A stretch of DNA of 55,548 nucleotides, the filler included, from Stramenopiles sp. TOSAG23-3 (lineage: Eukaryota): NCBI GenBank assembly GCA_900128585.1. It is 4 parts of 4 records of this genome, joined end to end, with 100 filler letters (N's around TTAATTAATTAA, not from the genome) between each part and the next. Parts side by side here need not be neighbours in the genome. Positions count along the whole stretch, not along the records: positions 1 to 25,664 come from LT642286.1; positions 25,765 to 51,249 come from LT642287.1; positions 51,350 to 53,399 come from LT645125.1; positions 53,500 to 55,548 come from LT645126.1. One strand, written 5' to 3'. The stretch's first letter is position 1. Every line of letters starts with the position of its first letter. Both the position numbers and the translations under genes were made by a program. The notes below the pieces were generated by a model. It was not told the origin of the DNA, searched no databases, and saw only the letters and a program-made list of their open reading frames with translations. This document shows positions 3,051 through 55,548 of the stretch, piece by piece.

Positions 3051-3139
3051 AAAACAAGAAAATTGGCTGTTATTTAAGTAATTAATTTAATTCTTAAATT
3101 GATTCTGTAATTTTGTTTCGTTGTTGGTTGTCAATCACC
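3051..3139 (+). repeat. Repeat family A copy (~90 bp)
   Basis: AAAACAAGAAAATTGGCTGTTATTTAAGTAATTAA...TTTTGTTTCGTTGTTGGTTGTCAATCACC matches 55261-55369. Confidence 0.9.
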
Positions 3140-3233
3140 AAATAGGATTTTTTTTAATTTACACACACACGCCGTCGTCACAGCGTGATGAAACGCTCTT
3201 GGCCATCTTAAATTACCTCTAGCTCCCTTGTGC

Positions 3234-4457
3234 CTACAGCAGTTTGCTGCTTCTTATTTGCTGACACCGGCGATATGCGTAGAATACGAATCCAAACATC
3301 AAAAAGGCCATTATCATAAATGGTACTCGCCACGACTGCTTCACTATTTCGTGCTCTTTCGAGACGTGCTGCAAATGATGGCCGGTCAATTCTTCAAGGC
3401 GTTTCAACTGCTCGTTCATCTCATCCTCTTGCGCCTCGAGCTTGGATATCATACTATACAAATGTGCATTTAAGCCCTTCACCTGATTTTCCAGGTGGTA
3501 CTTAATGTCCGTGATGCGCTCTTGATGCTCGTCCCCCTGTTGCTGCAAGGTTTTTACAATGCCCGTCTCTTTTACAATGTTGTTGATGCCCTCCATCTCG
3601 TCGTCGGTCGGTGCATCTGGGTCAACAGCATGTTGTCCGTTGCCTTCCGGGTCTGGGGATCTTTCCGTTTGAATTGTTACACCAAATATATCGTGAGCAT
3701 CCGTTAGGTCGCCAGTTGAAGCTGTGAACCCAAAATAATAGCCACCCTGGGGCAAGTACACTCCGTTCACATCGACACACCGTGTCCAAGTGTCGGAGTT
3801 GTGAAGGTTAATGTCCACGATAAGCTTGGGCTTTGAGTAATGGATCCGCACCGTGCTTATTTGCTGCGCCTCGGGTCCGTCGGTGTACGAACGGAATAGA
3901 GAGTGACAGGCAGGGATACCATGCTGCAGACCACCGTCTCCATGAATGTAGCTGAGCGTCCCATCGTTCGTCATGACAGACACATAAGGGTGGTTCTGCC
4001 GATCTCGGTTCCCGTTATCAAAAGTATCAAAAAAGACACCTAAACCTGTCCAATAGTCTCGTGATCCAAACACCGGTCCAGGTTCGTTCGCTTCGCTGGT
4101 GTACCAAAATGCAAACCCATCGCCGAAAAAGTCTACCCCCTTTCCATGCACTTTAAACTTAATCGTAACTTCCCACTCGTCCCCTAACATGCTGGCCGCG
4201 ATGCCCTCTGCGGTCCAAAGGGAACCTGCCTGGGACTGGAGTTCTGGAGTCAAGCGAATAAAGTCTTCTTGCACCGTGGTGCTGCCGCTGATGGACCACA
4301 TCCCGTACAACCTACCATCGTTGTAAGGCGTCTTATCAAGTGAAAGATCTTCGTTTCGATTCATAAGGGCTCGAGCGTTGTCCATGCTAATAAAAAGCAA
4401 CACGAAAAGAACACACAGAGAAAATGTGGAGACCGCCCGGTCTACAAAAACACTCAT
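3234..4457 (-). CDS. L-type lectin cargo receptor (VIP36/ERGIC-53, LMAN family)
   Basis: Signal peptide, IRLTP, GDGFAFWY, GPVFGS, GLGVFFDTFDN, YFGFTASTGDLTDAHD, coiled coil, C-terminal TM. Confidence 0.93.
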   Translation of the reverse strand: MSVFVDRAVSTFSLCVLFVLLFISMDNARALMNRNEDLSLDKTPYNDGRLYGMWSISGSTTVQEDFIRLTPELQSQAGSLWTAEGIAASMLGDEWEVTIKFKVHGKGVDFFGDGFAFWYTSEANEPGPVFGSRDYWTGLGVFFDTFDNGNRDRQNHPYVSVMTNDGTLSYIHGDGGLQHGIPACHSLFRSYTDGPEAQQISTVRIHYSKPKLIVDINLHNSDTWTRCVDVNGVYLPQGGYYFGFTASTGDLTDAHDIFGVTIQTERSPDPEGNGQHAVDPDAPTDDEMEGINNIVKETGIVKTLQQQGDEHQERITDIKYHLENQVKGLNAHLYSMISKLEAQEDEMNEQLKRLEELTGHHLQHVSKEHEIVKQSWRVPFMIMAFLMFGFVFYAYRRCQQIRSSKLL

Positions 4458-7060
4458 TTTTCCGCTTGCCACTCTTTTCGTAACCGGTTAAGTAGATATG
4501 CCTAAGAAGTAAGCGCCCTAATATGCGTTGAACAGTAAGAACGCGTTTGTAAACAGAAATATACCTTATTTCTTCTCTCTCTCTCACTTCCTCTTTACAC
4601 GTGTTTTGATTTGACACGAGCAGTTGCTAGATGAAATCGTTTATAACTTTCATTCATTTACGTCTATACAAAAGCTACATACAGTATAATTTAATTTTTA
4701 TTAAAATCAGTTAAAAAAATTTGTATTGTGTATTGTATTTTTTTATATATTTTATTAAATATAAATTATAAAAAATTATTATTATTTATTATTATTACAC
4801 TGTAATTATAAAATTACTGTTGTTGTATTATTATTTCGTATTTTATAATAATAATAATAGGTATTTATTATATTTATTTATTTATTTTTTAAATATAATC
4901 CTCCCTCCGTCGTCGTCGTCTCTTCTTCTTTTTTTATTAAATATTATTATTATTATCCGTGGTGGTTCCATCCAGTCTCTCCTCTCCCTCTCCAGTGGTG
5001 CATTGGTGCATTGGTGCATTTCGATCGGTCGTCATCATCGCCTCGCCTGCTGCCATCGTTCCTCTCTCTCGCTCCTCGCCTCCGTCGTTATAGTCGTTCT
5101 ATCTTCTCCTCCTCGTCCTTCTTCTCTTCATATCGTATTTATAGTATTTATTAGTATTTATTAGTATACCAAATCTTTGCTGTGACTACAGCGACTTTTT
5201 TCTTTTATTTCAGGATTTAAATTATATTATTATTTTATCGGTATTATTAATTATACTGTACAGTATTACATTATTATTGCTTCTATTAGCCTTTTAAAAT
5301 TATTACTTATATTTTACATTCGTACTATTGTATTCTATGCTGCTTGGATAGCATAACATTACGTACGTAGTCGTCTTCGTACATTAAATACGAGGAAGAG
5401 ACAAAGAAGATGCTTTTCTTTTAAATTTTTTTTTGTTCACAACAACAGGTACTGTACAGTAGAGAGAAAAGGGAAAAAAAAAGGAGAAAACAATTAGACG
5501 ACTATAATAATAATTAATAATAGAATTGTTTTCTGTTTGAAGAAGAGAAGAAGAAGAAGGAAGAAAAAAACAAAACAAAAAATTAAAAATATTTCATTAT
5601 CTCTTTGTTGCTATTATTTGTTTTGTATTTGTACACTTACACAGTATAATAATATAATAATTAAAAGATGCAATCAACTCCACCACCGCCACCGCGCGCT
5701 GCATTTTTTATTTATTTAATTTTATTATACAGTCATTTTTTACGACTACCGACCTCGTATTTAATTAAAACCCTATAATAATATTTACATTCCATTCCGT
5801 TGTTGGAATACTTTCGACACGTGGTGTGAGTTTGGATTTCTGTTGCTTTTGTTGTTGTTCCAAATATTATTATTAGACTATACAAATACGAAGGGATTTA
5901 TTTAATTGTTACGAGGACGCAAAGTAAATAGTTAGCAAATAAATAATTTATTATTTCTCCTTTGTACCTACTGTACCTTGTATTTATTTATCAAATTATT
6001 ATTTTATTAGAACGACATAGACAGTAGGACTAATAAAATTTAATCTATTGTGGATTCGTATTCGTTTGTTGTTTTACTCAGCTATTTCTATCTGCTCGAA
6101 TCTGCCGAACCACACATACGGTCGTCACACCCTCCCTCGGCCTTCTTACTCCTCCTCGTACGGCGGTACCGGTACGTAATAATACTCGGATGTGTGTGGG
6201 GTGGTGCGAGAAGATAATTTTATTTTCGATTGGCACACATTTCCCTAAATCCCTTGGTTTTATTCCTGGTACGGTAGTATTAATAATACCGTACCACCGA
6301 TCGACGACCGACCTGCGGTGGTGAAGCAATTCCATTCCGACAACTGGGGCATACGAAGCAAATGCAGGGATTGTGTGCCCCCTCCCCTTTCTTTTTTATA
6401 GTAGTAAATTAAAAAAAAATGTATTTAATAAAATATTATTGTATTATTTTTTTTCCCTTTCTTCTTTGCTATCCAATGTTACTGGTAGTATCATTTTTTT
6501 TGCAAAAATTTATTATTTATTATTTTTTTTACCAAGTAGTTAGTCGTCTATTATTTATTACAATAGTTAGTTATTGTCCATTATTATATTATGTACATTG
6601 AGTTGCTTTTTTTTAATTTACCACCAGACTTTGTTGTACACTATTATTATTATTTGGGTTCCCGTACCTGGTATTATTATACTGTAATACGACGTACGAA
6701 GAGGAAGAAAAAAGAAAAAAAATAATAATAATAATTTTATTTAAAAAATAATAATAATATATAATTAATAAAGAACACATTACTTCTTTCGCCATTTCGG
6801 AGTTAGTTACTGATGAAAATTGCATTGCATAAAGGAAATAAATAATTAAAACGCAGGCATTCGACATTAGTTACATTTAACTGCCCAATTTTTTTTTGAC
6901 GTAAAGCAAACTGTGTCTATAAGTTTAATTATTTAGTTTACGTTGCCCGTGACGACATTTTATAAGTCGTGGCATTTTCCTATACCGTCGGAGCTGGAGG
7001 ACCAACGTGCTTCACCCCCGCCCCCGCACGCACGCGCACACACTCAACCCACTGTAAAAG

Positions 7061-9103
7061 ATGAACTCCCAGACGAGAAAGAAAGGTCCTTTGAAAGGCG
7101 ACCACCAATTGATTGCTGGTGTCCGAGGTAAAAACGACGGTGATCGCATCGACGAATCTCTGGGCCTTGCAGGAGGCCACCACAGCAGCACAACCCCTCC
7201 AAAAGATACAAAAATTCAATACAGCTCAAGGAAAAGCCCAATATCTCGGAAAAGTCCTCGCAGTAGCCCTAGAAGCTCACCGGCAAGGCGAACACCGTCT
7301 CCGCACCATATTCATAAGTCGCACAAGGAGGGCCGAGTGAGTCCCAGAACTCGGGGCTTAAAGTCGACTGGGGCGTACGGGAAGGGTGGCCGGGGCACCA
7401 AGTTGGTGCACAGCTCAGCCCCGGCACACGACGCGAAGGGGACCGTGGGGGGCGGGATTCGCTCTGCGTTTGCCAGTAGTAAAAACTCAAGCAATTCGAT
7501 TTCGTCTTCGAGTGAAGTTAATCAGATATTGTCCAAAGGAAAACGCATTGGAATGCAACACTCTCTTCACAAAACGGTCGGGGAGAACCCTCCACCCGGA
7601 GTTTTCGAAGTGAATGCCCGCCAGAAACCGAGCGCCCTAATCGCGGCGCCTAAAGTCAACCCAAACAATGGGACTGTCGGTGGCGGGACACGCCTTATTA
7701 TGTCGAAGGTGCCAGTGCGTCATCGTAAAACGGGGCGAACGGCGTTGCGTAGCGACCGTGATCGTGAGTTTCTGAACAATCCGATCCCGAAAGGTGAAAG
7801 CATCCTGCCCTGGTTTGCCTCCAACCAAACTGGCGAGGCGGGGACCCAAACGGGGTTGGTTTACAATGCTGACGGAGTCCACCCCGACGTGGAAGCGTAT
7901 TCGCGAATTAAAGATGGGTTTGGGCGGCGCAGGTCCAACTCATGGGGTCCCTCTGCCCGTCGTCGCGCGCTTGCGGCATCTTCTACTGGCAAAACTGCTG
8001 AGAAGGGGCAGAGTGGTGGAAGAAAAAAACATGAAAAGCCGGTGGACCCAAGCGTAGCGGCAACCCCTGGGGGCAAGAATGCCCGGCCCCGCAACGGCAT
8101 GAACTTGGCGTTTACACCAAAGGATTATGCCCCTGCAGGCAAACCTTACTATAAAGAAATATCCATCGAAGACATCGACAAGATGCAAGGAATACTATCT
8201 CAAATGAAGGAGGACATGCTTCGCAAAGAGCAAGATTCTGTGGTGGTCAAGGGTCCGCTGCGAGAAATGCTCGAGCAGCACCAAGAACACTTTGACGACG
8301 TTGGGACGGACCTGGAAATTATCTCAAATTCTGTACATGACGAACACGCGATGTCGCTGGAAAAGTCGCGCCGGCGCGCTAAGTCTGGCCCTGCTGCGCT
8401 CAGGAGAAACTATGGGGACATGAAGCAAGTTTTTGATGCCATGAATGAAATGCAAGGCACACCTGGAAAGAGCCTTCGAGCATCGTTCGAGGAAATAGAA
8501 GAGGAAATTAGAAAAAAGCGGCTCGCGGGAGATGGTAGAACGAATGGAAACGCTGGCCCTTACGCAGTGTACGCGGCGGCGCAGCTGCGACTGCGCACGT
8601 CTTTGGAAGATTCCGGGGCCATCAGTGGTGGCACCGCACCAAACTTTAAAATGTTTCGCTCGAAAAGCACGGATGACGAAGACGCCAATCCGGAGACCTC
8701 CCCCAGAAAGAGTGCAGCAGTCGACCATGAAAATAAAAGCAGCAAAAGCGTGTCCACGGGTACGTCCCCTTTGAAAATTTCTACTCCAAGAAAACCGGAA
8801 AGTCCTTCAGAAGCAGGCTTCGACTTGATAGAACGTCCGTCGTTAGGGGAAGCTTTAAACGAAATTCAGCCATCTTCTGACTTGAGCAAATCTCCTCCCA
8901 AAGTTTCTCGGGTGTTGTCGGACACAGAAATTCCACGATTGAAATTAGATATGTTGAACCTCTCAATCAAAAGTCCGAGAGGTCAAAACTCCTGCAATTC
9001 CCCAGATTTATCGAAGCAAATGCTGGATATTGCAAGTCCAAGGTCTGCATTCTCGAAAACATCTGCACGGAGTACCCTGACAAACAGTTCTTCCGAGAAC
9101 TGA
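7061..9103 (+). CDS. Hypothetical S/P/K/R-rich, largely disordered protein
   Basis: 680-codon ATG-started ORF with coding-like GC against AT-rich flanks; no recognisable domain. Confidence 0.75.
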   Translation: MNSQTRKKGPLKGDHQLIAGVRGKNDGDRIDESLGLAGGHHSSTTPPKDTKIQYSSRKSPISRKSPRSSPRSSPARRTPSPHHIHKSHKEGRVSPRTRGLKSTGAYGKGGRGTKLVHSSAPAHDAKGTVGGGIRSAFASSKNSSNSISSSSEVNQILSKGKRIGMQHSLHKTVGENPPPGVFEVNARQKPSALIAAPKVNPNNGTVGGGTRLIMSKVPVRHRKTGRTALRSDRDREFLNNPIPKGESILPWFASNQTGEAGTQTGLVYNADGVHPDVEAYSRIKDGFGRRRSNSWGPSARRRALAASSTGKTAEKGQSGGRKKHEKPVDPSVAATPGGKNARPRNGMNLAFTPKDYAPAGKPYYKEISIEDIDKMQGILSQMKEDMLRKEQDSVVVKGPLREMLEQHQEHFDDVGTDLEIISNSVHDEHAMSLEKSRRRAKSGPAALRRNYGDMKQVFDAMNEMQGTPGKSLRASFEEIEEEIRKKRLAGDGRTNGNAGPYAVYAAAQLRLRTSLEDSGAISGGTAPNFKMFRSKSTDDEDANPETSPRKSAAVDHENKSSKSVSTGTSPLKISTPRKPESPSEAGFDLIERPSLGEALNEIQPSSDLSKSPPKVSRVLSDTEIPRLKLDMLNLSIKSPRGQNSCNSPDLSKQMLDIASPRSAFSKTSARSTLTNSSSEN

Positions 9104-9146
9104 GGCATTCTTGGTTACGCTGCTAGGAAAGGTAACAAATTCTTAT

Positions 9147-9170
9147 AACAAAAAATTGGCTGTTATTTAA
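9147..9170 (+). repeat. Repeat family A terminal motif
   Basis: AACAAAAAATTGGCTGTTATTTAA, 44 nt after the stop codon at 9103. Confidence 0.75.
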
Positions 9171-9266
9171 AAGTATAATTTGTTTTAAGTAATTAAAAAA
9201 TAATGTGACTTCTATATTAAAAACGAATAATGTACTGCGAACTGAACTCTACTGGGATGGATTCTT

Positions 9267-9293
9267 AAAAACAAAAAATTGGCTGTTATTTTT
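9267..9293 (+). repeat. Repeat family A terminal motif
   Basis: AAAAACAAAAAATTGGCTGTTATTTTT. Confidence 0.75.
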
Positions 9294-9680
9294 TTTTTTA
9301 AATTCTATAGTATGCTTTAAGTAAAAAAAACAAAATAGATAGTAATATTTTTTTTTTAAATTAAATAAACGCGTAAGAACTTATAGGGTTGTGTACAAAC
9401 CAACAGTTCCAGGGTTTTTAAAACGAATCCATGAATGTTACGACTTCCGCCGTAAGAGTTCGAATTACATTTGAGTGGTCTCGGCATAACTCTATTTTTA
9501 ACCACAAGTGTCCAAGTAAAAATTAACAAACCCGGGCAAAACCCGAACACCATGAGTTTTTGTGTGTTTTTCTATAGGGCAAAAAAAAACGCACTAGAGC
9601 ACGGTACTTGTACTAGATAATCCAGTATTAAATACGATAGTTGTCTATCTATATTTTCCATATTAAAAATACAACATTTC

Positions 9681-9891
9681 AGCATGGGATAAAAAATATC
9701 AAGGTCCAAAATTGAACATGGTGTTTTTGTATTTAAGTTGTTGGCAAAAAAAAGAAAAAAAGAAAAACGAAGATTGTTGTGAGGGTACGGTAGTTAAAAG
9801 CATGGGATAAAAAATATCAAGGTCCAAAATTGAACATGGTGTTTTTGTATTTCAGTTGTTGGCAAAAAAAATAAAAGAAAAACGAAGATTG
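9681..9891. repeat. Near-identical direct repeat, ~95-bp unit, 118-bp period
   Basis: AGCATGGGATAAAAAATATCAAGGTCCAAAATTGAACATGGTGTTTTTGTATTT...GAAGATTG at 9681 and 9799. Confidence 0.95.
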
Positions 9892-9989
9892 ATTGAGGAG
9901 GAAAAAGGAAGAAGAAGTGAAAAAAAGAGGAGGAGGGAGCACAGGAGCAGAGGTAACGTTTAACCAGGTCCCTTACTTTGCTACTTTGT

Positions 9990-10208
9990 TCGTAGTCTAA
10001 ATAAAGGAGTGTTGACCCTATCTCTCCCTACACTTCGTACACGAACAGAACAATTGGTTTCCGGTCAGAAATCTAGTACTAGTTTTTTCTAATTTCATGA
10101 TACATTTCCTCGTAGTGTAAATAAAGTTATTAGGGTTGATCCTAATACAACCCTACACGAATACAGAACAATTGGTTTGGGTCCGGTAAGGAGAAATCTA
10201 TTACTAGT
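9990..10208. repeat. Diverged direct repeat, ~120-bp period
   Basis: TCGTAGT.TAAATAAAG...CCCTACAC...ACAGAACAATTGGTTT...CCGGT...AGAAATCTA.TACTAGT at 9990 and 10110. Confidence 0.85.
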
Positions 10209-10945
10209 GTTTTAGGTAAGACGTAATTATGCTATTTCCCTTTTAAACTATTTCAATTTCTGACTCATTTTAATTTGATGACAGAACTTTAGTATTATAT
10301 TATATTTTAAATCCAAAAACGAATTATCTGTGTTGCTATATTATTAGCTGTATTATATTAAAACATCGCATTTTCTTTTAAATCCCGAAAAAGGCAAATT
10401 TCATCGTATTGAAACATCGCTCTTTTATAAATTAAGGATATAATTATATATTTTATATTTTATTATCATAAACTTATTGATATGATTAATTTTAAAAGAT
10501 GACCACCTTAATTATCAAAAAGAAACAAAAGAAAGTGCTATTATTTTTTTTATGGATCAAATAAACAATCATATTGTGTGTATGTAAAATCCCTCGTTAT
10601 AGAGTTTCTACTGTGGTTACTACACTAATTAAAGAGAGAATACCATCTCATGTTTCAGCATACGTTGACATATGCTGTGAATGTTTTGTATTTTAAAATG
10701 TTCCCTCTTTCGTAGCATCAACACAACAGGAGGAACTTTTTCTTTAAATCGGACGGACACTCTGGCCACCCGCCGCTGCAAGTAGTTGTGTACAAGAACA
10801 CTCTTCCGTCTCTATGTTAGTTGATTCCAAAGGAATAAAAATGTTTGTAGGTAGGATATAATAACGTCGTTAGTCCTTTTGCTCACCAATTTATATTCAC
10901 ATTATACATATATATATATATACATACGTATATTCTTTGCTGACA

Positions 10946-12769
10946 ATGGATCCGAAAAAGACGGAGGAGTCCCCGAAAGCCCCCCCGCTGCCGCCTGCCA
11001 TCGCCAGCTTGAAACGACAGCGGAACGAGCAAAACTCTTTTGCGTGGTACCAGTATATGATTGTTCCAGAGACTATCAGGAACATAAACATATACAAACT
11101 GAACAAATTTCCGGGATTTGTGCCCGATGATTTCAACACGTTCCAGGACCAACTTCTGGCGTTGGGCGTCGCCAAGTTCATTGACGAAAGGGATCCACCA
11201 GAGTCTATGTCGTTGTCGGACATTGCTGTAAAATTTTATGCATACTTTGTCGGCCGTATGAAAACTGATAGGTTGTTGCACTTACTGACGTTTTCGTTTC
11301 TAAACGAAAGAATACCCCACGACATCTTAAAGAAGTTTAAATTCTTTGAGTGGAAAACCAACTCAAGCACGATAGGGATGACAGGGGCCAAGAAACAGGT
11401 GCAAATCAAGTTTACCAAGTTCTACAAGACTACGCCGTTCCATATCTCTGCCTCCCTGCGCGAGGTGTTCGTCAATTCTAAAAATTACTGGATATCCGGC
11501 AAGCGCGATCGATCGTTGAGCGGGGCCAAGGTAAAGGGTAAGAAATCTTCCTCGAAGAAGAAAAATGCGCTCGGGGAAAGCCCGCTCCTTTGCGAGCTGA
11601 AGTTTGACAAAGTGATCAACGAAGCGCGAGAAATGTTTGTTGTTTCCTGCATTCGAGCGGGAGTAGAAAAGGAGACCATTGCCAAATTCTGCGCCTCCCA
11701 ATTCCTTGGCAGACCAATCAAATCGTGGAACGAAATTCTGATGCCAGACCGAGCCGCCAGCCCGAAGATCTCCACCGTCGCTCTCGCCAGGGATCCATCC
11801 CCAAAGGTGGTCTCGCGCTGGGACTGGACGATGGACCCAAGAGATTATATTTTGAGAACGTGGCGCTTCATGGCGGGCGTGCCCAGCGCAGGCCCAGACA
11901 TGGTGTCCCTCGAACTGTTCCAGAAAGAGATCTTGAGAGAGTACGGCGCGGATGCAATATACTACGTAAAGGACTTTTACAACCCGAGCTTTGTTGATGG
12001 GTTAGTGTACGACCATCCGAAAATGACGGAATTGTTTGGGCCATACAAAGGTCGTGCAAAGCACCTCCTGGATTACTTTAGCTCGGAAAACATTTACGAC
12101 GTTTTCAAGTTCATGTTTAGTGGTGACAATTCCTTGCCGATTGCGTCAAGAGCGGTAACGGCTGAAGGCTTCAAAGTCGAAGCGCGTGCCCGTGTAGTAT
12201 TTTCGCCCTCAAAGCGTTATTTAGCGCTTGTTATTGAGTCTATAACGAACGTCCTTGAATTTGAAAATCCGCAAGAGTTCAAAATAGATGTCTCCAAAGG
12301 CATAAGCAATTCGTTCGCGAACAACGTTCGTGCGTACGTATATGAGTCCATTCGCTTCATGATGGGATATCCTGTAGATTCTGTACCTGATCCCACGTCG
12401 CTCGGGGTGTTTATCAATGATCTAAAGCAGTACAAAACGGACGGTGAACAGGCTATTTTATACCAAGTAATTGATCATCATTTGCCTCGCGACAAATCAG
12501 TGGTGTACGAATCTCCAAGATTCGAAGAACTGTTCGGGCCCCTGGCACGCCGGCACGAGCGATTGGAAAGCGCCCTTGACATTAATACAATTTGGAACGC
12601 CGGTAAGCAGATCTTCCTCGGCAAGGCATTCATGTTTAAGCTGAAAGTGAACACAATTGATAGTACCCGTCTCTGTATTTCGATATATTTTAAACGATCA
12701 ACTTGCGGAAGGTACCATGGACGGGTAATAGAGCTCAAAAAAACCGAACGGGTTGATGATGCGAAGTAA
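10946..12769 (+). CDS. Uncharacterised protein with two internally repeated PAS-like domains
   Basis: Internal repeat R.Y....RFM.G.P...PD..SL..F...AI.Y...VY..P...ELFGP; first copy ends in PAC-like TAEGFKVEARARVV...LVIESIT. Confidence 0.75.
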   Translation: MDPKKTEESPKAPPLPPAIASLKRQRNEQNSFAWYQYMIVPETIRNINIYKLNKFPGFVPDDFNTFQDQLLALGVAKFIDERDPPESMSLSDIAVKFYAYFVGRMKTDRLLHLLTFSFLNERIPHDILKKFKFFEWKTNSSTIGMTGAKKQVQIKFTKFYKTTPFHISASLREVFVNSKNYWISGKRDRSLSGAKVKGKKSSSKKKNALGESPLLCELKFDKVINEAREMFVVSCIRAGVEKETIAKFCASQFLGRPIKSWNEILMPDRAASPKISTVALARDPSPKVVSRWDWTMDPRDYILRTWRFMAGVPSAGPDMVSLELFQKEILREYGADAIYYVKDFYNPSFVDGLVYDHPKMTELFGPYKGRAKHLLDYFSSENIYDVFKFMFSGDNSLPIASRAVTAEGFKVEARARVVFSPSKRYLALVIESITNVLEFENPQEFKIDVSKGISNSFANNVRAYVYESIRFMMGYPVDSVPDPTSLGVFINDLKQYKTDGEQAILYQVIDHHLPRDKSVVYESPRFEELFGPLARRHERLESALDINTIWNAGKQIFLGKAFMFKLKVNTIDSTRLCISIYFKRSTCGRYHGRVIELKKTERVDDAK

Positions 12770-15379: not shown

Positions 15380-16160
15380 ATGTCGAAAGTTGCCCCAGAT
15401 TATATCGCACTAGACGAAGAGGCGAAGGAGGCGAAGGAGGCGAAGGAGCCCAGTGCACCAGCACGACCCTCTCGGCCTTCGCGGCCAGTACGGTCGCAGA
15501 CAAAGGTGCAACCGACGAATGCGATCGTAGAAGAAGTGCCTAGTACAAATGATACTGTGGAACAATTAAAAAAAAATCTGTCGTCCCTGCCCCAGCCTGT
15601 AAAGAAAGTAAAGGAAACCCCAGTACTTAACCCAGTGATGGAAGTTGCCGTGGTTAAAGAGCCAGACACACCAAAGGCCCCCAGAGAAGAAGAAAAGGGG
15701 GACAATCCTGCAACTTCCTCTTTGACCGACCCGGAGAACCATGCGTCTAAAGGACAGGGGGAAACAACTCTCCAGAAGACTTTTTCTGTACGGAAATGAG
15801 GAGGTTAATGGCCTGTTGACACCAGATCAATTTCAAAAAATTGTCTCACAGTTTGAAGATCAAATGGTGCATAACATCATGGGCTCTCTCGGGAAAAACA
15901 TGGGCACTTTGATGTCAGCTGTTTTCGTTGCAGTGAGTGTTTTGCTTCTATTGTTTGGTTTCTTGTTTCTGGGGATATCTACATTTTCTACTGCCGGGGC
16001 ATTTAATGCTGGTACAAGTGGAAGCTTGTTCATGGGTCTTGGAAATGTGCTGAATGGAGATGAAGAAGAGGAGGAGGACGACGATGATGACGATGACGAT
16101 GATGGTGATGAGGGAATTGCGGAAGCAATCGCCGACAATATTGAAATGGTAGAGGGGTGA
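15380..16160 (+). CDS. Probably one frameshifted gene: P/E/K-rich N-terminus, degenerate EF-hand, TM segment, acidic tail (assembly error or pseudogene)
   Basis: ORFs 15380-15799 and 15741-16160 overlap in a +1 relationship near a G5 run (~15757-15761); the second lacks a convincing own start. Confidence 0.55.
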
Positions 16161-20826: not shown

Positions 20827-20952
20827 NNNNNNNNNNNNNNNNNNNNNNNNNNNNNNNNNNNNNNNNNNNNNNNNNNNNNNNNNNNNNNNNNNNNNNNNNN
20901 NNNNNNNNNNNNNNNNNNNNNNNNNNNNNNNNNNNNNNNNNNNNNNNNNNNN
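20827..20952. other. Assembly gap (126 N)
   Basis: N run. Confidence 1.
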
Positions 20953-22430: not shown

Positions 22431-22960
22431 TAATGCTATTCCATGTAAATTTTATCCTTTTTGTTAAAAAATAAAAACACGACCGTCGTTGGTTTTCTTT
22501 AAGTAAAAGGCTTTGATAGACACCTGTTCAACAAAGCCGACTCGATTTTCAAAGTATGGAATTGTCCCGCCAGAAAATGACAAAAGAAAGCAAAGGAGAG
22601 ACTTATCTGCATAAGTTTAGCTCATGCAAATATTCCTCTACGGATGTACGGTCTTCAACGAACGTTTGTAAATTGTTTGCCCTATAATGACTTGGAATTG
22701 CGGTTCCAAGGGACAATTTTTTTAGAAATGTGTGATTTGGGGCAAATGCCACCCGGTCAGACACTTATTCCTTCGTTCGCGTTGGAAAAATGAGGCGTAG
22801 TGGCATAATTTCTCATATCTCAAAAGACTTTTGACCATTTAAAATTGTAAAAATTATCCATTTTTCATAAAGATCTCTTTGTTTCAAATAGTTCGCACAA
22901 AGTGCTTTCCCATTTTTCAATTCCGCGCCAAAGATACAGAAGAGAGGAATAATTCGTCTC
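22431..22960 (+). repeat. Repeat family B, ~530-bp interspersed non-coding element (most complete copy)
   Basis: 22431-22790 aligns with 53010-53399; 22827-22960 aligns with the reverse complement of 51116-51249. Confidence 0.9.
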
Positions 22961-23088: not shown

Positions 23089-23214
23089 NNNNNNNNNNNN
23101 NNNNNNNNNNNNNNNNNNNNNNNNNNNNNNNNNNNNNNNNNNNNNNNNNNNNNNNNNNNNNNNNNNNNNNNNNNNNNNNNNNNNNNNNNNNNNNNNNNNN
23201 NNNNNNNNNNNNNN
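23089..23214. other. Assembly gap (126 N)
   Basis: N run. Confidence 1.
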
Positions 23215-24079: not shown

Positions 24080-24203
24080 GGACGTAATAGTAGTTATAGT
24101 TACGGGTTGCGGCTATTTCGTGCGAGGACGAAGGAAGGCACTAACAAAAGCAAAAGCAATTTAAGAGAACATCTCTTAATCCTGTCTGTTATTTAGATAC
24201 ATG

Positions 24204-24408
24204 TAAAGGTTATTAAAAATGTATTTCTTACCTGCCAAATGTTCAACCCATACAAGCAGACTCTTGTCCTATCACCATCCTCTAATTCGCTCCATCTAGA
24301 ATCACCCAACACTATCTTAAGATTTTTTATTTGTGGTAAAGACGGAAAGAGTCCGCTTGTATGGGTTGAACATTTGGCAGGTAAGAAATACATTTTTAAT
24401 AACCTTTA
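24204..24408. mobile_element. MITE-like foldback element (201 bp, ~60-bp TIRs, TA on both sides)
   Basis: 24203-24265 is the reverse complement of 24347-24409 with one mismatch; TA at 24204-24205 and 24407-24408. Confidence 0.8.
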
Positions 24409-25196
24409 CCTGCCCCCAAGTACGACGCTTTGAACATCGTGCCCCGATACAAGCCTTTCATTCCTTCCGCCCCCAACAGCTCCTTTGCAACTACGAAGTG
24501 CTCCACGACGCCTTTGATGCCGATCCCATGCGCTGGACGGTTTGGGTCTAAAAACATACGCTTTTGGACAACAGAGCGAATGACGTCTGCAGGAATGTTC
24601 CCGCAGAGGGCCCCGGTCACACCCGCGCAGAAGCCACCCCCCAAGCTGGCCACAAACGGCGGAAGATTTGCATCTCGAAAATAACCACGGTACGTGCTCA
24701 AGGTGCCAAAGTAAATTCCAGTAAAGATAGACTGGCGCAGTTGCATGCCGAACCAGCCGCAGTACAAGCCGCTCAGGCCTCTCTGCTTGTACGTGTGCTT
24801 CATGAATGCAACCATGCTGTTCTTAAATTTATTTGTAGTGTCGACCTGCAGGCCTAACTTTGCAACCTCAAACGGAGAGATCGCCAGAATTTCTGGGAAC
24901 GTGGCGAGGGCGCCCGCCGCAATCTTCTGCGGAATCGAACACTCGCTCGGCTTCTTCCCCCATAGGGCGTTCGACATAACTGGGTTGAAAAAAAACTTAC
25001 TGGCGCGCATCACCGTCGCACGGGTAACTTCTGGCGCCATTCCTTGCCCAAAAAAACCCCTAACCCCATACTTTGCGTAAAAATCCCCCCTGGACGTCCC
25101 AGACATCTTCAAGGCGCGCAAAACGTCGACAGGGTAGAACACTACCGCCACGACGAGACTGCTCGCCCCCAACGGAACCAGCGTGTCAAAGTTCAT
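24396..25196 (-). CDS. Mitochondrial carrier family protein; 3' end interrupted by the foldback element or an intron (possible last exon 24140-24100)
   Basis: YPVDVLR, SPFEVAKL, IPADVIRS signatures and LYRG; homology stops at GCAG|GTAAAG before the sixth TM helix is complete. Confidence 0.88.
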   Translation of the reverse strand: MNFDTLVPLGASSLVVAVVFYPVDVLRALKMSGTSRGDFYAKYGVRGFFGQGMAPEVTRATVMRASKFFFNPVMSNALWGKKPSECSIPQKIAAGALATFPEILAISPFEVAKLGLQVDTTNKFKNSMVAFMKHTYKQRGLSGLYCGWFGMQLRQSIFTGIYFGTLSTYRGYFRDANLPPFVASLGGGFCAGVTGALCGNIPADVIRSVVQKRMFLDPNRPAHGIGIKGVVEHFVVAKELLGAEGMKGLYRGTMFKASYLGAGKGY

Positions 25197-25664: not shown

Positions 25665-25764
25665 NNNNNNNNNNNNNNNNNNNNNNNNNNNNNNNNNNNN
25701 NNNNNNNNTTAATTAATTAANNNNNNNNNNNNNNNNNNNNNNNNNNNNNNNNNNNNNNNNNNNN
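25665..25764. other. Scaffold gap with artificial six-frame-stop linker
   Basis: 44 N + TTAATTAATTAA + 44 N. Confidence 0.97.
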
Positions 25765-25836
<72 letters not shown>

Positions 25837-25837
25837 A
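25765..25837. repeat. (AAAG)n microsatellite
   Basis: Perfect tetranucleotide run abutting the gap. Confidence 0.97.
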
Positions 25838-26043
25838 GATACAACAAGAAATTGATTATATTACATTCGTACCGGTAGAATAGGAGGAGGAGTCAGTCGC
25901 TCGGTAGAGATTCTAAGCATTAATATATACACAGCATAGCGAATGATGCTGTGTCGATTCTCCCAAGAAGAAGGAGAAGGACTTTATCTTTCTTATTTCA
26001 TACTACATACTTTTATTACATATAGACGACTATCTAAAACACA

Positions 26044-33935: not shown

Positions 33936-34311
33936 ACAGAAAAAATCTCTGATAAAATTCTAAAAGATATTTATCATTTTCGTATATGAATAAATAAGAA
34001 AAAAAACAAATTAAAAATATATTATGGCTATTATATAATTTGTTTTTAATTTTATAATAAAAAACAAATTATATAGTATGTTTTAAGACTGTACTATATT
34101 ACTATATATTTTGTTTTGTTTTAAGACTCTCATTTTAAATCAAATACTACTTCAAAAATGTAATAATATTGTGTTGCTCCTTTTGTCCATTCTAATCAAT
34201 ATATCATACCATTGTCACTTAGTCTTGACTATCATTCTCAGATACGTACTCCATGCATGATCCAAATCGGTAGGTGGATTGGCAATGCTTTCAAATGATC
34301 TGTAATTAACT

Positions 34312-34490
34312 TCCTCTTCCGATGTCTCACTCATAGATAACTGAAACCTTGTGTGATTTTCCAAGCAGCGGCGTAAATATTTTAGAGGTGCCCGTTGTCT
34401 GTCTTGTACATCAGTCAATGGATTATCATTTGTGGGTTGGGGTGGCGGGGGAGGGTTGTACCTTAAAAGCAAGAAAATTGGCTGTGATTA
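34312..34490 (+). repeat. Repeat family A: internal segment followed by the terminal motif
   Basis: 34312-34438 matches 55424-55548; AAAAGCAAGAAAATTGGCTGTGATT at 34465. Confidence 0.9.
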
Positions 34491-36653: not shown

Positions 36654-37607
36654 AAAACGTGTGAAGTCAAAAAATAATAGATACTTGTTTGTTGAGTTGA
36701 TGTTAATAATCGTTAAAGAAAAGTCCTTTCCGTATGCTTCAATTCTCTTTCCTTTTTCTTCTTCGCTAAAACTAACTAACGTGTACGTACGTAACCAAAT
36801 CATCTAAATCAATTACGTAAATAATAATTCCAAAAGTATTAATTATATATACAATACAGTTTCCTTCCTTCCCTTTTGGCTTTTGGCCCTTCCTTTTCCT
36901 TCCTCCTCCCTTTTGTTGGCCTTTTATGGTTCTTACTTCTTACTACTACGTACGAGTAAACGTACTAGTTATTATATTTATACTTTATCTTTACTTCACT
37001 CCTTCTTTCTTTCTTTCTTTCTTTTAATTATATAATAAATAAATACTTCCAGATAGATACAGTATAATAAGGAAGGATAATGAAGGAAGAAGGAATTCTA
37101 TTTCAATGAATTTAGGGAAAAAGATTAAATCTCTGATAATAATGAATATATATTGTTGTTATAATTATCCTTAAGGTATGAAACGCTTATGCTATTTCAT
37201 TACTAATTTAAAACGAAAAGAAGAAAACCATTAAATTTTTTTATTTTTTTATTTCTTTCGTTCCTCTGCTGTATTTCTATTATTATTTGTACTTAATGAA
37301 TAAATAAATAGAGACTTAGTATACGAATCTCTTAAAAGATTGCTTTTTATTGGTTGGTTGTGCGTGTCGTGGAAAAATAATAAGGAAATTATTAAAATAT
37401 AAAAATATATTTAGTATACAAATAACGTATAAATTAAAGAAGAAATGAAACCAAAATTGAGTTTTTATTAAAACATTTATCCATTGAACAATACCCAAAA
37501 AAGGAAGTCAAAAATGTTAAGGAATGAAATTAAAAAAAGAATTCTTGTTAAATATTATATTGACCCTGATCTTAACCCTAATTATGTCCTTCTTCAAGAA
37601 GCGAAGC

Positions 37608-37812
37608 GAAAAGAAAAGAAAAAGAAAAGAAAAGAAAAGAAAAGAAAAGAAAAGAAAAAGAAAAGAAAAGAAAAGAAAAGAAAAGAAAAGAAAAGAAAAG
37701 AAAAGAAAAGAAAAGAAAAGAAAAAGAAAAAGAAAAGAAAAGAAAAGAAAAGAAAAGAAGCGAAAAGAAAAGAAAAGAAAAGAAAAGAAAAGAAAAGAAA
37801 AGAAGCGAAAAG
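37608..37812. repeat. (AAAAG)n pentanucleotide microsatellite
   Basis: ~200-bp imperfect run. Confidence 0.97.
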
Positions 37813-38267
37813 AGGAACAACAACATCTCCTCCTTCTATCCTCTTCTTCTCCTCGTAGTCTATGTAAATATTAATTAGACTACTAGATATTATATTACAA
37901 AATGCGCACAGATAATAATAATAAAATATGTGCCTTGTTGCTTTTCTTCTTCTTCTTCTTCTTTCTTCCTTCTTCTTCTTCTATCTTCTTGATGATTATT
38001 ATTATTAAATTATTATTAATTATTTTATTTTCTTTATTTTAAATCTCAAGTTATTAGGATATATATGGTATTTATTTTGTTAGCTAGACGACTACCCTTG
38101 TGGTGAATCAGTTACGTCTTCCAAAAGTGAGTTATGAGAAGTTGAACCGTGCATTCTATATCTATTTCTATAAAAATAGAACTAATTGGAGACCAAGCTT
38201 GGTTTTGACACGCGGAAGGACGGACGAACGCACGCTCGGGGGGGGGGGTCCAGTTCCCACACAAACC

Positions 38268-38981: not shown

Positions 38982-39008
38982 AAAAACAAAAAATAATGGC
39001 TGTTGTTT
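38982..39008 (+). repeat. Repeat family A terminal motif (diverged)
   Basis: AAAAACAAAAAATAATGGCTGTTGTTT. Confidence 0.55.
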
Positions 39009-39393
39009 AGGTAGACTATATAATATTTAAATTTTATCTTCTTCGTTGTAAGTACCCCGAATTTATTTCTGCTACTTACGCCAAGTAAAGTTTTACTTCC
39101 TTCAAATGTACCTGTGCGAATTTATTTCTGCTCCGGTGGTTCTTTATTGATAATCAAATTTATAACGGTGAGGTATGAGATTTAATCAAAAATATGATCA
39201 GATAAAATTACCCGAAAAAGGCGTTAAATCCACATGTCGTGTAAGATCTTACGAATTGCATTATTTACATAATTCTTTAATTAAATAAAAAAACTAATTA
39301 TATAGTATGTTAAAATAAAATATATATACTTTTGTTCGATTGCTTTTTGGTAGACTACCCAGAGTTTTCTTTTGCGCTGTGCGTCGGTGTTTT

Positions 39394-41013: not shown

Positions 41014-41366
41014 ACTTCTGTGATAAATTGACGTGCGCTATACTGGCAAAGCAATGTGCAACACCGGTGAATTCACAAGCTTCGACTAATTTCAACAAAA
41101 TCGTCTCGTACAGAAATCGTTGCGTGATTTTAAGAGTGGTGGAAAGCGACAGTTGTACGAACAAACCCAACGTTTAATGATTATAAAAAAGAAGAAGAAG
41201 AGGAAAGAAAGAAAGAAGAAATAATATATAGGTAAATAGAGGGCAGTTAGTTAAGCCATTGGCAACAACAACAACACCGCTCTTTCTTTTAACAGTCGTC
41301 TTCTATCGTCGTATTATCAATGCAGTTAATATTGGATTACCAGCAATAATAAATAATGGGCGATCA

Positions 41367-41432
41367 AAGAAGAAGAAGAAGAAGAAGAAGAAGAAGAAGA
41401 AAGAAGAAAGAAGAAGAAGAAGAAGAAGAAGA
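41367..41432. repeat. (GAA)n microsatellite
   Basis: Imperfect trinucleotide run. Confidence 0.95.
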
Positions 41433-42507
41433 AAGGGGAAACAACATACAACGGGATCGAAAAGAAACGGAAGAATATTTACACTTCCTTTCTTCCTTCC
41501 TTCCTTCCTTCCCCCCACTGTCCGTCCCCTGTTGTTTCCCTTTACGATGTCATTCAGTTTTTATTCTTTTTTTGTTGTACTGTAGTACATTCACTATTAT
41601 ACTTACTTAGCTGTAGCACACTCTCTAGTAAGTAAGCTCTAAGGCAAGATGCCAACGGTAAACATAGGACGGCTACTCCTCGTACATTTACATCTATTTA
41701 CATCCTATATGTTATAATTTAAACTGTACTGTAGTAGGAAGCACGATTACAACTCAGGACTGTGACTAAAGTTGTTCCGTATTATTAGTCGTTCTATTAA
41801 TTAGACTATTAGTCAGTTCTAGAGTGTTGCAGTTGTTTAGAAACACACACACACCCTCGTGAAAACTCTGCTGCTTGAATCTAATAATTAATAGTCGGTT
41901 CTATTATTGCGGTGTCCGTGTTATTGTTATTGTTTTTATATTGCTTTTACAACAGTCATCGTTCTCTGAAAATAAAAAACGATATTTTACATACTAATAA
42001 TAGATGACTACTTCGTACAGTACGAGGTACGGAACCTTTATTAATACCTGGTATTCATACCTGTACCTGGGTATTATTAGGACTAATGAGTACCTGGTAC
42101 CGTACCTGGTACCAACCAAAGGAATGTATTAAATACCAAACTCCTAAAGTAGTATTTATTAACTAGACTATTAAAATATATATTAACTAGAATTTTAGTA
42201 CACGACCGTCCCAGTTATATATAGTCACAGTCATCTGCTGTTGCATGTACGGTACGGTACCGGTAGGTACTTTGTGCAAATAGTACATGTCTTATTGCCA
42301 CTTATCACGATGAAGCAGTCGTCGGTCTGGGTTTCAAATGTTTCAAAATTGCGTTGTTAAAAAATTGCTTTTTCTTCGGTTAAAAAAAATGTATTACACA
42401 CGTACTTTTTAGTATTCTTATAATAATTCTTATTAAACTGGATATATTTTTGTTTTTCCAATTATGTGTTTTTTAGAGATTATTGTTAGTTCGCAGTACA
42501 TTTAATT

Positions 42508-42540
42508 TTAATTACTTAAATAACAGCCAATTTTCTTGTT
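42508..42540 (-). repeat. Repeat family A terminal motif (minus strand)
   Basis: Reverse complement reads AACAAGAAAATTGGCTGTTATTTAAGTAATTAA, 72 nt after the stop of the minus-strand AAA gene. Confidence 0.9.
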
Positions 42541-42611
42541 ATTGTTAATTCACAGTGCCCTGATGCTCGCAAATTGGCCTCCCCATAAGTAAAGCAGATC
42601 TAATTTTCTGT

Positions 42612-51115: not shown

Positions 51116-51249
51116 GAGACGAAAAATCTTGATGACGAGTATCTTTGGCGCGGAATTGAAAAATGGGAAGCGACTTTGTGTAAACTATTTGAGATGAAGA
51201 GATCTTTACGAAAAAAGTATAATTTTTACTATTTCAACCGTTCAAAAGT
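51116..51249 (-). repeat. Repeat family B partial copy (right end, inverted), cut by gap
   Basis: GTATCTTTGGCGCGGAATTGAAAAATGGGAA...TCAAAAGT matches the reverse complement of 22827-22937. Confidence 0.9.
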
Positions 51250-51349
51250 NNNNNNNNNNNNNNNNNNNNNNNNNNNNNNNNNNNNNNNNNNNNTTAATTA
51301 ATTAANNNNNNNNNNNNNNNNNNNNNNNNNNNNNNNNNNNNNNNNNNNN
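51250..51349. other. Scaffold gap with artificial linker
   Basis: 44 N + TTAATTAATTAA + 44 N. Confidence 0.97.
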
Positions 51350-53399: not shown

Positions 53400-53499
53400 N
53401 NNNNNNNNNNNNNNNNNNNNNNNNNNNNNNNNNNNNNNNNNNNTTAATTAATTAANNNNNNNNNNNNNNNNNNNNNNNNNNNNNNNNNNNNNNNNNNNN
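53400..53499. other. Scaffold gap with artificial linker
   Basis: 44 N + TTAATTAATTAA + 44 N. Confidence 0.97.
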
Positions 53500-53554
53500 A
53501 AACAAAAAATATGCTCCAGTGAGGAATTGAGGCCACAGACAGATCCAATTATCA

Positions 53555-55222
53555 TTGAAAGGCACGGTATCTACCCCCGGCCAGCAGAAAGTAGTGCAAC
53601 ATTTTCTCCTGGAGTCCAGTTTTTTGGCATCCCTCGTTGAGCGAAGCACTAAAACCGATAGCAATTCGGTGAAGTATACTTCGTATACCATTCAAGTCCA
53701 GCAAAAGACGATAACGTGGAAGATTCAGCGCAGGTATCGCGATTTTGTGGACTTTCGATTGAAATTAAGACGCCTAGGTTTCCTTCAGATTGCTAAACTT
53801 CCACCAAAAACGTGGACTAAACAAAATTTTGATGCCAACTTCCTAGCGAAGCGGCAAGAGGCACTAGCCGTGTGGATCAGTGACGTATTGTCGTACTTTA
53901 ATAAAGAATCGAGCGGGGATATGGTCTGTTTCCAGCGGGATAAAGGCTCCACAAGTGACCAATATGTGAAACTCTGCCAGTGTATTCGAACATTTTTCAT
54001 CGATAAAGACCTTCAAAAATGCGATACTTCTGCTGAATGTATCGGTTCATCTCCCCTTTCGAAATCTAAAGCCAGTGACGCCGATGAAATTACAGCAGGG
54101 AAAACTTCTAGCCCAATCTCAGCCGTGACATTAACAAGTTTTGAATTACTAAAGGTTCTTGGCAAAGGGTCTTATGGAAAGGTAATTTTAGTACGAAAGA
54201 ATTCAGGTCATGATATTGGATCTTTGTATGCGATGAAAGTCTTAAAGAAGGAACATGTTATGAAGAAAAAACAAGTGGCGCATACAAAAACTGAGCGAAG
54301 CGTTCTAGGTACCATTCGCCACCCGTTTATTGTCCGTTTGCATTACGCATTCCAAACGGGGGATAAACTGCATTTTGTTCTAGATTATTGCTCTGGTGGA
54401 GAATTATTTTTCCATCTTCAAAAACATGGTCGATTCCCCCCGAAATTGGCCTTGTTTTACACTGCAGAATTAACTCTTGCTTTGGGAGAATTACACTCTC
54501 ATGGTATTGTATACCGCGATATGAAGCCGGAAAACATTCTTCTTGACGACCTTGGCCACGTTCAATTGGCAGACTTTGGACTTTCGAAGGAAGGGATCAA
54601 AAGTGGAGAAAAGGGTACTAGATCTTTTTGTGGGACACCTGAGTATCTTGCACCAGAGGTTTTGGAACGTAAAGGCCACGGCTTTGCAGTAGACTGGTGG
54701 GCTTTAGGTGCATTGCTGTATGAAATGATCACTGGCCTACCTCCGTGGTATTCCAGAGATCGGCAAAAAATGTTTGCTTGTATAAGAGGTGCACCACTTC
54801 AATTTCCGGGATATGTGGTGGGTGATTTGAAAGCATTAATATCTGATTTCCTTGTGCGTGATCCAATGAGCAGACTAGGTGGGCGTGGACGAGATGTATG
54901 TGAAGTCCGAGAACACCCTATTTTTAGATTTGTAAATTGGGACACGCTACTACGGCGCGAAACTAAACCACCTTGGAAACCTCCAGTTGCAGGTCCATTT
55001 AAAAACAGCTATGATATTAGCAATTTTGAGGACAGCTTCACTAACTTACCTGTACAAAGTTTGGGTTCCAGCGTAACAAATGAACCCAGCCGCATTGACA
55101 GAGCCCAGTCTGCAACAAATGGTGCATTCGAAGGATTCACTTACGTTGGCGAAAGTGTCTTACTTGGAGATAATTTTCGAGAAAAATTGAATATTAACAA
55201 AAGTAGTGCTCCGAAAAATTGA
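53555..55222 (+). CDS. PX-domain AGC Ser/Thr kinase (SGK/S6K-like); true start not visible
   Basis: PX: YTSYTI, RRYRDF, LPPKTW, KRQEAL. Kinase: GKGSYG, YAMKVL, YRDMKPEN, DFGLSK, FCGTPEYLAPE; hydrophobic motif FEGFTY. Confidence 0.93.
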   Translation: MKGTVSTPGQQKVVQHFLLESSFLASLVERSTKTDSNSVKYTSYTIQVQQKTITWKIQRRYRDFVDFRLKLRRLGFLQIAKLPPKTWTKQNFDANFLAKRQEALAVWISDVLSYFNKESSGDMVCFQRDKGSTSDQYVKLCQCIRTFFIDKDLQKCDTSAECIGSSPLSKSKASDADEITAGKTSSPISAVTLTSFELLKVLGKGSYGKVILVRKNSGHDIGSLYAMKVLKKEHVMKKKQVAHTKTERSVLGTIRHPFIVRLHYAFQTGDKLHFVLDYCSGGELFFHLQKHGRFPPKLALFYTAELTLALGELHSHGIVYRDMKPENILLDDLGHVQLADFGLSKEGIKSGEKGTRSFCGTPEYLAPEVLERKGHGFAVDWWALGALLYEMITGLPPWYSRDRQKMFACIRGAPLQFPGYVVGDLKALISDFLVRDPMSRLGGRGRDVCEVREHPIFRFVNWDTLLRRETKPPWKPPVAGPFKNSYDISNFEDSFTNLPVQSLGSSVTNEPSRIDRAQSATNGAFEGFTYVGESVLLGDNFREKLNINKSSAPKN

Positions 55223-55260
55223 AATATCACAAGATATTGAAAATTGGTTTCATATTTTTT

Positions 55261-55548
55261 AAAAACAAGAAAATTGGCTGTTGTTATATAAGTAATTAAA
55301 TTTAGCTTCCTCATACCCTAATCCTAACTTGGTTCTGTTATTTTGTTTCGTTGTTGGTTGTCAATCACCGATGGGATATAATTTCCAATATTGAACAATT
55401 TAATTCCTTTTGTCTGCTTACGGCCTCATCCGATATCTCACTCATAGGTAACTTAATCCTTTTACGATTTTCCAAGCAGCGGCTTAATTGTTTTAGAGGT
55501 GCTCGTTGTCTGTCTTGTAAATCAGTCATGGGATTGTCATCTGTGGGT
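55261..55548 (+). repeat. Repeat family A, longest copy (>=288 bp, runs off the window)
   Basis: Terminal motif 39 nt after the kinase stop; shares segments with both 3051-3139 and 34312-34438. Confidence 0.92.

Follow-up and report, generated by a model that had tools for sequence, protein, structure and literature searches.

Does a short sequence that recurs behind genes serve those genes, or is it the debris of a mobile element? The window considered here, the whole analysed stretch of 55,548 nucleotides from Stramenopiles sp. TOSAG23-3 (GenBank assembly GCA_900128585.1), raises this question through a 22-nt motif found repeatedly downstream of stop codons. An earlier note on this DNA had proposed either a mobile element with fixed polarity and one-sided truncation, or a signal of transposon origin for polyadenylation, termination or the 3' untranslated region (UTR). 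The motif probably represents, in antisense, the last ~45 nt (...TTAATTACTTAAATAACAGCCAATTTTCTTGTTTTTA) at the 3' end of a non-LTR (LTR, long terminal repeat) retrotransposon resembling the long interspersed nuclear elements (LINEs), which would carry a large open reading frame (ORF) with reverse transcriptase (RT)-like and R2-like restriction-like endonuclease (RLE) regions and would be inserted by target-primed reverse transcription. Motif, 3' UTR and ORF are continuous, the copies form a truncation series, one of them has a target-site duplication, and their placement is not random.

Motif copies in the window

The window was scanned with the motif AACAARAAAATTGGCTGTTRTT, allowing up to 3 mismatches, and dinucleotide-preserving shuffles served as controls. 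Six matches were found, five on the plus strand (3053, 9146, 9269, 34468 and 55264) and one on the minus strand (42519-42540). In the shuffles the mean was 0.01 matches, and none of 100 reached six. A seventh copy at 38984-39005 is more diverged. With a profile derived from the copies, nhmmer returns exactly 7 matches in the window (E = 1.5e-9 to 1.7e-6); no further weak copy lies below E = 3.9, the value of the next match. The motif coordinates in the earlier note, including the lone minus-strand copy, are thus borne out by scan, shuffles and profile, and its distances from the preceding stop codons (18, 44, 164, 530, 214, 72 and 39 nt) agree with the gene models. Tying every copy to the gene before it holds as far as these distances go, with one exception: the copy at 34468 is probably unrelated to the gene 530 nt upstream, because it adjoins a longer copy of the same element (E4 in Table 1).

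Alignments confirm that the copies share one end and vary in length. Measured from the shared end, they extend over ~25 bp (E5), ~40-50 bp (E3 and E7), ~100-125 bp (E1, E2 and E6) or at least 309 bp in the case of E8, which continues past the end of the window. Three junctions (9267, 34465 and 55261) read TT/AAAA, as had been claimed. Genes and divergent (promoter) intergenic regions are free of copies, also in line with the earlier description.

The motif is joined to a large ORF

The collection genome_contigs was searched with a 21-nt form of the motif, which matched at 4 loci. Three of them (L001, L002 and L004) were rejected as chance 21-mer matches in bacterial contigs, with nothing similar beyond the 21-mer. 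The fourth, L003, is contig CALGTL010000157.1, a sequence of 4101 bp that was binned in a bacterial metagenome-assembled genome. It has ~115 nt in common with the window copies, including an insertion that otherwise occurs only at 55264. On the opposite strand of L003 there is a 5'-open ORF of 1191 aa (P0241, positions 2-3577), and ~115 nt past its end comes the motif as reverse complement. Because motif, 3' UTR and ORF form one continuous stretch on this contig, the conserved end is the 3' terminus of the element, read on the opposite strand.

The same protein is found in the window. On the minus strand, the C-terminus of P0241 (…PTDNNPLTNLQDRQRAP…SEISDEEV…) appears again at 34215-34487 and 55365-55547, where the C-terminal coding sequence itself is placed at 34245-34436 and 55374-55547, and tblastn with 8 family proteins detects two coding fragments only, in E4 and E8. 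The shorter window copies align only to the last 40-125 nt of the L003 element. When the 8 window copies are aligned to L003, they share the tail end and differ in their start points, giving a 5'-truncation series. From the coding fragments and the tail alignments together it follows that the window copies are 5'-truncated copies. A mobile element of the non-LTR type with truncation on one side, one of the options in the earlier note, is therefore supported by the continuity of the shared end with 3' UTR and C-terminal coding sequence. The polarity, by contrast, is the reverse of that proposed: the motif strand is the antisense strand (first-strand complementary DNA, cDNA), with the ORF and the 3' end on the other one. 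Relative to the upstream gene the copies are therefore antisense and arranged tail-to-tail. The search for a full-length element that the earlier note had called for produced this ORF-bearing relative with its RT-like region, but no complete copy.

It is worth noting that the copies are not uniform. E2 and E7 start with a common block, GTTCGCAGTACATT (9190-9262 and 42489-42502), which is unlike the ORF-linked 3' UTR of E1, E8 and L003. This difference in upstream sequence indicates at least two subfamilies with a common ~45-nt tail, as would be expected if the RT recognises the 3' end of its RNA. E2 and E7 may represent a short non-autonomous partner, similar to short interspersed nuclear elements, that has only the tail in common with the LINE-like element. 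Two head-to-tail pairs are present, E3-E2 and E5-E4. A telomere-repeat-like sequence, CCCTAATCCTAAC, is found in the element 3' UTR of E8 (55311-55323) and of L003 (3628-3640), and is absent from E1.

The encoded protein

The family of P0241 is multi-copy. Four relatives found through a word index (678-851 aa) belong to clusters of 116, 11, 83 and 62 members, and an exhaustive search gave 295 fragment matches with E <= 1e-3, 54 of which have E <= 1e-30. For residues 1-240, 26 of the 30 nearest named Atlas clusters, as judged by a language model, carry RVT_1 (top score 0.96), which is a lead rather than a test. Among the N-terminal fragments the blocks SRQGTQQGDPIGM and AFADDLxIVAP are conserved; they contain QGDP and FADD, which we take to be RT motifs B and C.

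In the C-terminal part, an AlphaFold2 model of residues 620-1050, based on a 69-row alignment, has a predicted local distance difference test (pLDDT) score > 90 over ~170 residues. When this model was compared with the PDB by Foldseek, R2 retrotransposon proteins took 6 of the top 8 places. The best matches were 9dou_A (E = 0.014, prob 0.98) and 9nl2_A (E = 0.031, prob 0.97), and since no match reached E <= 0.001, the R2/RLE assignment is a consistent lead, not proof. Next in rank were restriction enzymes and viral cap-snatching nucleases of the PD-(D/E)XK type. At the level of sequence pattern, a candidate C..C..H..C..H cluster and a D/E/K pattern are conserved in this part, and after the nuclease-like domain comes a Ser/Pro-rich stretch of ~170 aa. 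The predicted order in the ORF is an RT-like region, a cysteine/histidine cluster and a PD-(D/E)XK R2-like RLE domain. The element is most likely a non-LTR retrotransposon of the RLE (R2/NeSL/Utopia) type.

Placement and insertion junctions

At all 6 loci the tail faces a stop codon at a distance of 10-214 nt. Of the intergenic (position, strand) states in the window, 13.3% are tail-to-tail and within 230 nt of a stop, which for six loci gives p = 5.6e-6, with a cut-off that was set after the data had been seen. When position alone is counted, the fraction is 23.9% of states and p is ~2e-4. The sense orientation of the motif behind genes, as first described, holds at all sites, but it carries information at just 9.1 kb, 42.5 kb and perhaps 55.2 kb. 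The other three loci (3.0, 34 and 39 kb) lie between convergent genes, where either strand is downstream and in sense. Small convergent genes that would flip the orientation were considered as well, and the stop-to-stop ORFs in 9100-10950 and 41014-42611 show nothing credible.

A long common target was not found in the flanks of the 6 window loci and L003, in which respect the element departs from the single conserved target of R2-like elements. The regularity of insertion is positional, behind stop codons, and not a conserved target sequence. Six of 8 copies have a GG[AT]T[TG] word at a distance of 8-23 nt from the junction (by eye and post hoc; the background is ~0.003 per position). Words of the GGATT type are not generally enriched in 3' flanks, with 3 in ~3.4 kb as opposed to 29 in 34 kb.

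The clearest target-site duplication surrounds E7, which is flanked by a perfect 9-bp direct repeat, TTATTGTTA, at 42480-42488 and 42539-42547; repeats of at least 9 nt appeared in 2 of 300 flank shuffles. E1 has a 7-bp AGGATTT repeat on both sides, which is marginal, with 25 of 300 shuffles doing as well. An 8-nt sequence, ATATTGAA, had been seen by eye as a duplication around E8, and was dropped when the alignment with L003 placed its right-hand copy inside the element. In the 3' flank of the ACSF3-like gene, 30095-30125 (GGATGGATGAATTCTTTTTTTTTT) resembles the flank that adjoins E3 (GGGATGGATTCTT) without an insert, and is therefore a possible "empty-site-like" sequence.

These features would fit target-primed reverse transcription, in which RT activity, the RLE assignment and the details of priming are predictions. 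The gene-sense strand would be nicked just behind the stop codon, often at a TT/AAAA-like sequence, and the A-rich 3' end of the nicked strand would pair with the U-rich end of the element RNA. The cDNA, equal to the motif strand, would then extend away from the gene. Its synthesis would usually abort early, leaving the gene-side end in common and the far end variable (25 to at least 309 bp), and the two tandem pairs might come from template jumps or repeated insertion. Such a course would account for the position of the shared end, always next to the gene, and for the TT/AAAA reading of several junctions.

Signal, remnant or targeted insertion

Several results weigh against the retrotransposon reading as a whole, in addition to the Foldseek E-values, the late choice of cut-off and the small number of loci (about three) with informative orientation. 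A Pfam search of the 1191-aa ORF and of 6 N-terminal fragments recognised neither RVT nor any other family, and among PDB sequences a phmmer search with the ORF and a search with a profile of the N-terminal region both gave 0 matches. The AlphaFold2 model of the N-terminal part is poor (pLDDT 54.5) and its Foldseek matches are meaningless. No full-length copy was seen, as L003 ends within the putative RT and so truncates P0241, and RNAalifold predicts 0 conserved pairs in the tail RNA on 8 copies. Target-site duplications are convincing at one of five boundary pairs, marginal at one and lacking at three. On L003 no gene is visible within 414 nt of the tail. A foldback of ~370 bp (3731-4100) starts 33 nt past the tail there, with 153-nt arms that are 92% complementary and outer 31-nt arms, and because it reaches the contig end, L003 is uninformative on placement. 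Part of this foldback weakly resembles window 6385-6493 (67%, E = 3.5e-5). The missing RT family match by Pfam or PDB sequence search and the missing full-length element would also suit an ORF that belongs to a multi-copy host gene family, with the short copies being leftovers of its 3' UTR from segmental duplication or gene conversion. This is very unlikely given that the copies lie behind six unrelated genes with exactly one end in common, that E7 is flanked by a 9-bp duplication, that hundreds of fragmentary relatives exist, and that fold matches to R2 are joined by RVT_1-like features. Moreover, the differences between the coding fragments of E4 and E8 are mostly non-synonymous, as in decay: a count by eye over 41 codons gave ~17 nt changes leading to 13 amino-acid changes. 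A Helitron-like rolling-circle element truncated at one end, which the earlier note had allowed for, shares with the data only the one conserved end and the variable extent, and is virtually out of the question. Pfam detects no Helitron_like_N, Rep or PIF1 helicase in the 1191-aa ORF, which instead looks like an RT with an R2-like endonuclease; the ends are not 5'-TC...CTRR-3' and there is no subterminal GC hairpin. To our knowledge Helitrons make no target-site duplication, and E7 has one of 9 bp.

If the element is a retrotransposon, the question becomes why its copies lie where they do. Tentatively, the R2-like element may home to the zone where ordinary protein-coding genes terminate, just behind their stops and in a tail-to-tail arrangement throughout; for the host, the antisense tail may also serve as a terminator or poly(A) cassette. 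It is quite possible, without being probable, that there is no targeting, and that insertion is nearly random in A/T-rich DNA with survivors only in gene 3' flanks and in the least harmful orientation. Nick sites of the L1 type (TT/AAAA-like) are generic, the flanks have yielded no long target sequence in common, and in a compact genome (62% coding) insertions in coding sequences and promoters would be selected against. On the other hand, the 76% of intergenic positions that are >230 nt downstream of any stop hold none of the six loci, the tails of E1, E2 and E8 sit 10-40 nt from stops in probable 3' UTRs, where it is not evident that insertion does the least harm, and the GG[AT]T[TG] word recurs near the junction in most copies, albeit as a post hoc pattern. 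Elements of the RLE type are also typically target-specific (PMC4640811). The placement statistics of this one window fit 3'-end targeting and selective survival alike. A host function could exist besides either process, since it is compatible with a retrotransposon origin: the antisense tail (AAAAACAAGAAAATTGGCTGTTATTTAAGTAATTAA) would be kept as an exapted site of cleavage and polyadenylation, termination or 3' UTR regulation. At four loci the tails are 10-80 nt past the stop, so host 3' UTRs almost certainly extend into them. The motif strand has an A-rich block followed by GU/U-rich TGTT(A/G)TT and a UUAUUUAA-like block, presumably elements of the poly(A) or AU-rich (ARE) type. Without E1, the convergent genes ending at 3033 and 3234 would be only ~80 nt apart, which places E1 in their termination zone, and two more genes have a weak CTGTTATT-like match, in sense, in their 3' flanks (24186 and 48077). 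Such a role is nevertheless unlikely as the explanation of the motif, which follows only 6 of ~24 genes and is therefore not the general 3'-end signal. The copies vary widely in length and are decaying as neutral remnants do (E4 without a tail, E6 and 34002-34078 degenerate), and CTGTT[AG]TT is found 6 times in contexts other than 3' ends as well.

Comparison with known elements

The features of the proposed retrotransposon can be set beside several known systems. Like the R2/NeSL/Utopia/CRE group, it has one large ORF in which an RT-like region is followed by a Cys/His cluster and by a domain best matched by R2 proteins; it also has 5'-truncated copies with a common 3' end and a tail that is a specific sequence and not poly(A). 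It differs in that Pfam gives no RVT_1 match, in the ~170 aa Ser/Pro-rich sequence after the nuclease-like domain, and in its flanks, which belong to 3' ends of protein-coding genes that are unrelated and lack a long common target. Known members of the group home to repeated genes or microsatellites, such as ribosomal DNA, small nuclear RNA and spliced-leader genes, and for Utopia, which is present in stramenopiles (oomycetes), tandem insertion has been reported (PMC4640811). The tandem copies E3-E2 and E5-E4 are a likeness to Utopia. In listings and abstracts, a literature search found no non-LTR element that homes behind stop codons.

Other systems resemble the element in part. The TRE5 and TRE3 elements of Dictyostelium are non-LTR elements that target tRNA genes, with RNA polymerase III landmarks and an endonuclease of the apurinic/apyrimidinic (APE) type. 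Like them, the present element is LINE-like, lives in a gene-dense protist with a set side, distance and orientation relative to genes, and invites a safe-haven reading; unlike them, its landmark is the stop-codon or terminator side of protein-coding genes transcribed by RNA polymerase II (Pol II). The SIDER elements of Leishmania lie in polycistronic units in sense orientation, have kept a 5' signature and were co-opted for mRNA regulation. They are likewise short, degenerate and strand-biased remnants, derived from extinct or rare retroposons and concentrated in 3' UTRs, and so offer a model for exaptation, whereas the copies described here are antisense, retain the 3' tail and have a hypothetical regulatory role. 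The three TT/AAAA junctions recall the target of L1-type elements. In contrast to L1, the tail is U-rich and not poly(A), which would make the A-rich strand the priming strand, and the nuclease-like domain looks RLE-type and not APE-type.

The family is new, the class of element is known, and the niche is unusual. An anonymous 3' motif thereby becomes a family of retrotransposon insertions that can be dated and counted in the genome of an uncultured-type stramenopile. This family is without Pfam-recognisable domains and otherwise known only from hundreds of metagenomic fragments. If targeting is true, an R2-like enzyme would recognise a feature of Pol II gene ends instead of a repeated gene, which would bear on the persistence of mobile elements in compact genomes and on the use of R2-type proteins for site-directed insertion. 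If homing is true, gene 3' ends would offer safe harbours where 62% of the genome is coding, and would be a new kind of target for the R2-like class. For annotation, searches for 3' UTR or terminator motifs in such genomes should be run only after the tails have been masked.

Catalogue of copies

Table 1. Copies of the element in the window. Strand refers to the element, whose ORF and 3' end lie opposite the motif strand.
Copy	Position	Strand	Description	Position relative to stop codons	Alignments
E1	3043..3158	-	5'-truncated copy, 3' UTR and tail	tail end 10-16 nt past stop (3033) of ERGIC3-like gene; truncated end ~76 nt from stop (3234) of convergent lectin gene	L003 3574-3698; window 55260-55384
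E2	9135..9262	-	short copy, second subfamily	tail ~32-41 nt after stop at 9103	core 9135-9181 alone aligns to L003; extent to ~9262 judged by eye against E7
E3	9266..9304	-	short tail copy, directly upstream of E2 in element orientation; tandem pair		
	34002..34078	-	degenerate old copy, tentative	67-143 nt after stop at 33935	local alignment to E3, score 57 (shuffles: mean 33, standard deviation 5, maximum 48 of 200); against five other references not above shuffles
E4	34160..34459	-	5'-truncated; last ~64 codons of element ORF and part of 3' UTR; canonical tail not recognisable		34459-34248 to L003 3357-3568, blastn 79% over 212 nt, E = 1e-45; 86% identical to 55424-55548 (E8); tblastn with P0241-P0243, E = 4e-12 to 2e-17
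E5	34465..34490	-	25-bp tail fragment abutting truncated 5' end of E4; head-to-tail junction		
E6	38982..39080	-	diverged copy in convergent intergenic region	tail 214 nt past stop (38768) of Sedlin-like gene	nhmmer E = 3e-7; weak alignment to L003 3610-3691
E7	42480..42547	+	50-bp copy (42489-42538) and flanking repeats	tail faces stop (42612) of minus-strand AAA-ATPase gene	
E8	55240..55548	-	longest copy, at least 309 bp; ORF C-terminus, stop codon, 3' UTR and tail	tail 18-39 nt past stop (55222) of PX-kinase gene	55548-55260 to L003 3379-3692, blastn 77% over 317 nt, E = 2e-56; tblastn E = 4e-13

Host genome and other features of the window

The DNA of the window is eukaryotic and poor in introns. 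Genes cover 62% of it, and most of its ~24 long ORFs have Pfam domains. A DDX3-type helicase encoded there has its best named relatives in oomycetes, thraustochytrids and diatoms (62-66% identity), and for an ACSF3-like enzyme no relatives of >50% identity were found. From these two values the host appears to be a stramenopile-like protist without a close sequenced relative. An origin of the motif from tRNA or LTR sequences was ruled out, as ARAGORN reports 0 tRNAs and Rfam 0 gathering-level matches in the window; no LTR structure was seen in it either.

Two runs of 126 N (20827-20952 and 23089-23214) and three 100-bp blocks (25665-25764, 51250-51349 and 53400-53499), each consisting of 44 N, TTAATTAATTAA and another 44 N, a linker with stops in six frames, resemble scaffold gaps or joins and show that the window is a stitched draft. 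None of them adjoins a motif copy. At 15380-15799 and 15741-16160 (+) two 139-aa ORFs without a Pfam match overlap in different frames; together they may form a single gene interrupted by a frameshift, a short intron or an assembly error. Long intergenic microsatellites of the (AAAG)n and (AAAAG)n type are present at 25765-25850 and 37560-37830, and a 124-aa "ORF" at 37484-37858 is probably merely microsatellite repeat.

Two inverted repeats were also noted. A 111-nt pair (22827-22937 and 51139-51249, 86%) is ~28 kb apart and constitutes a further dispersed repeat, unrelated to the motif; its second arm stops at an assembly gap. Between the convergent GrpE-like and carrier genes there is a 66-nt inverted repeat (24200-24265 and 24347-24412), 97% complementary with 81 nt between its arms. 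The same sense sequence stands directly after the stop of each gene, one arm overlapping the stop at 24396, and the structure at 24200-24412 may be a foldback element or a bidirectional terminator.

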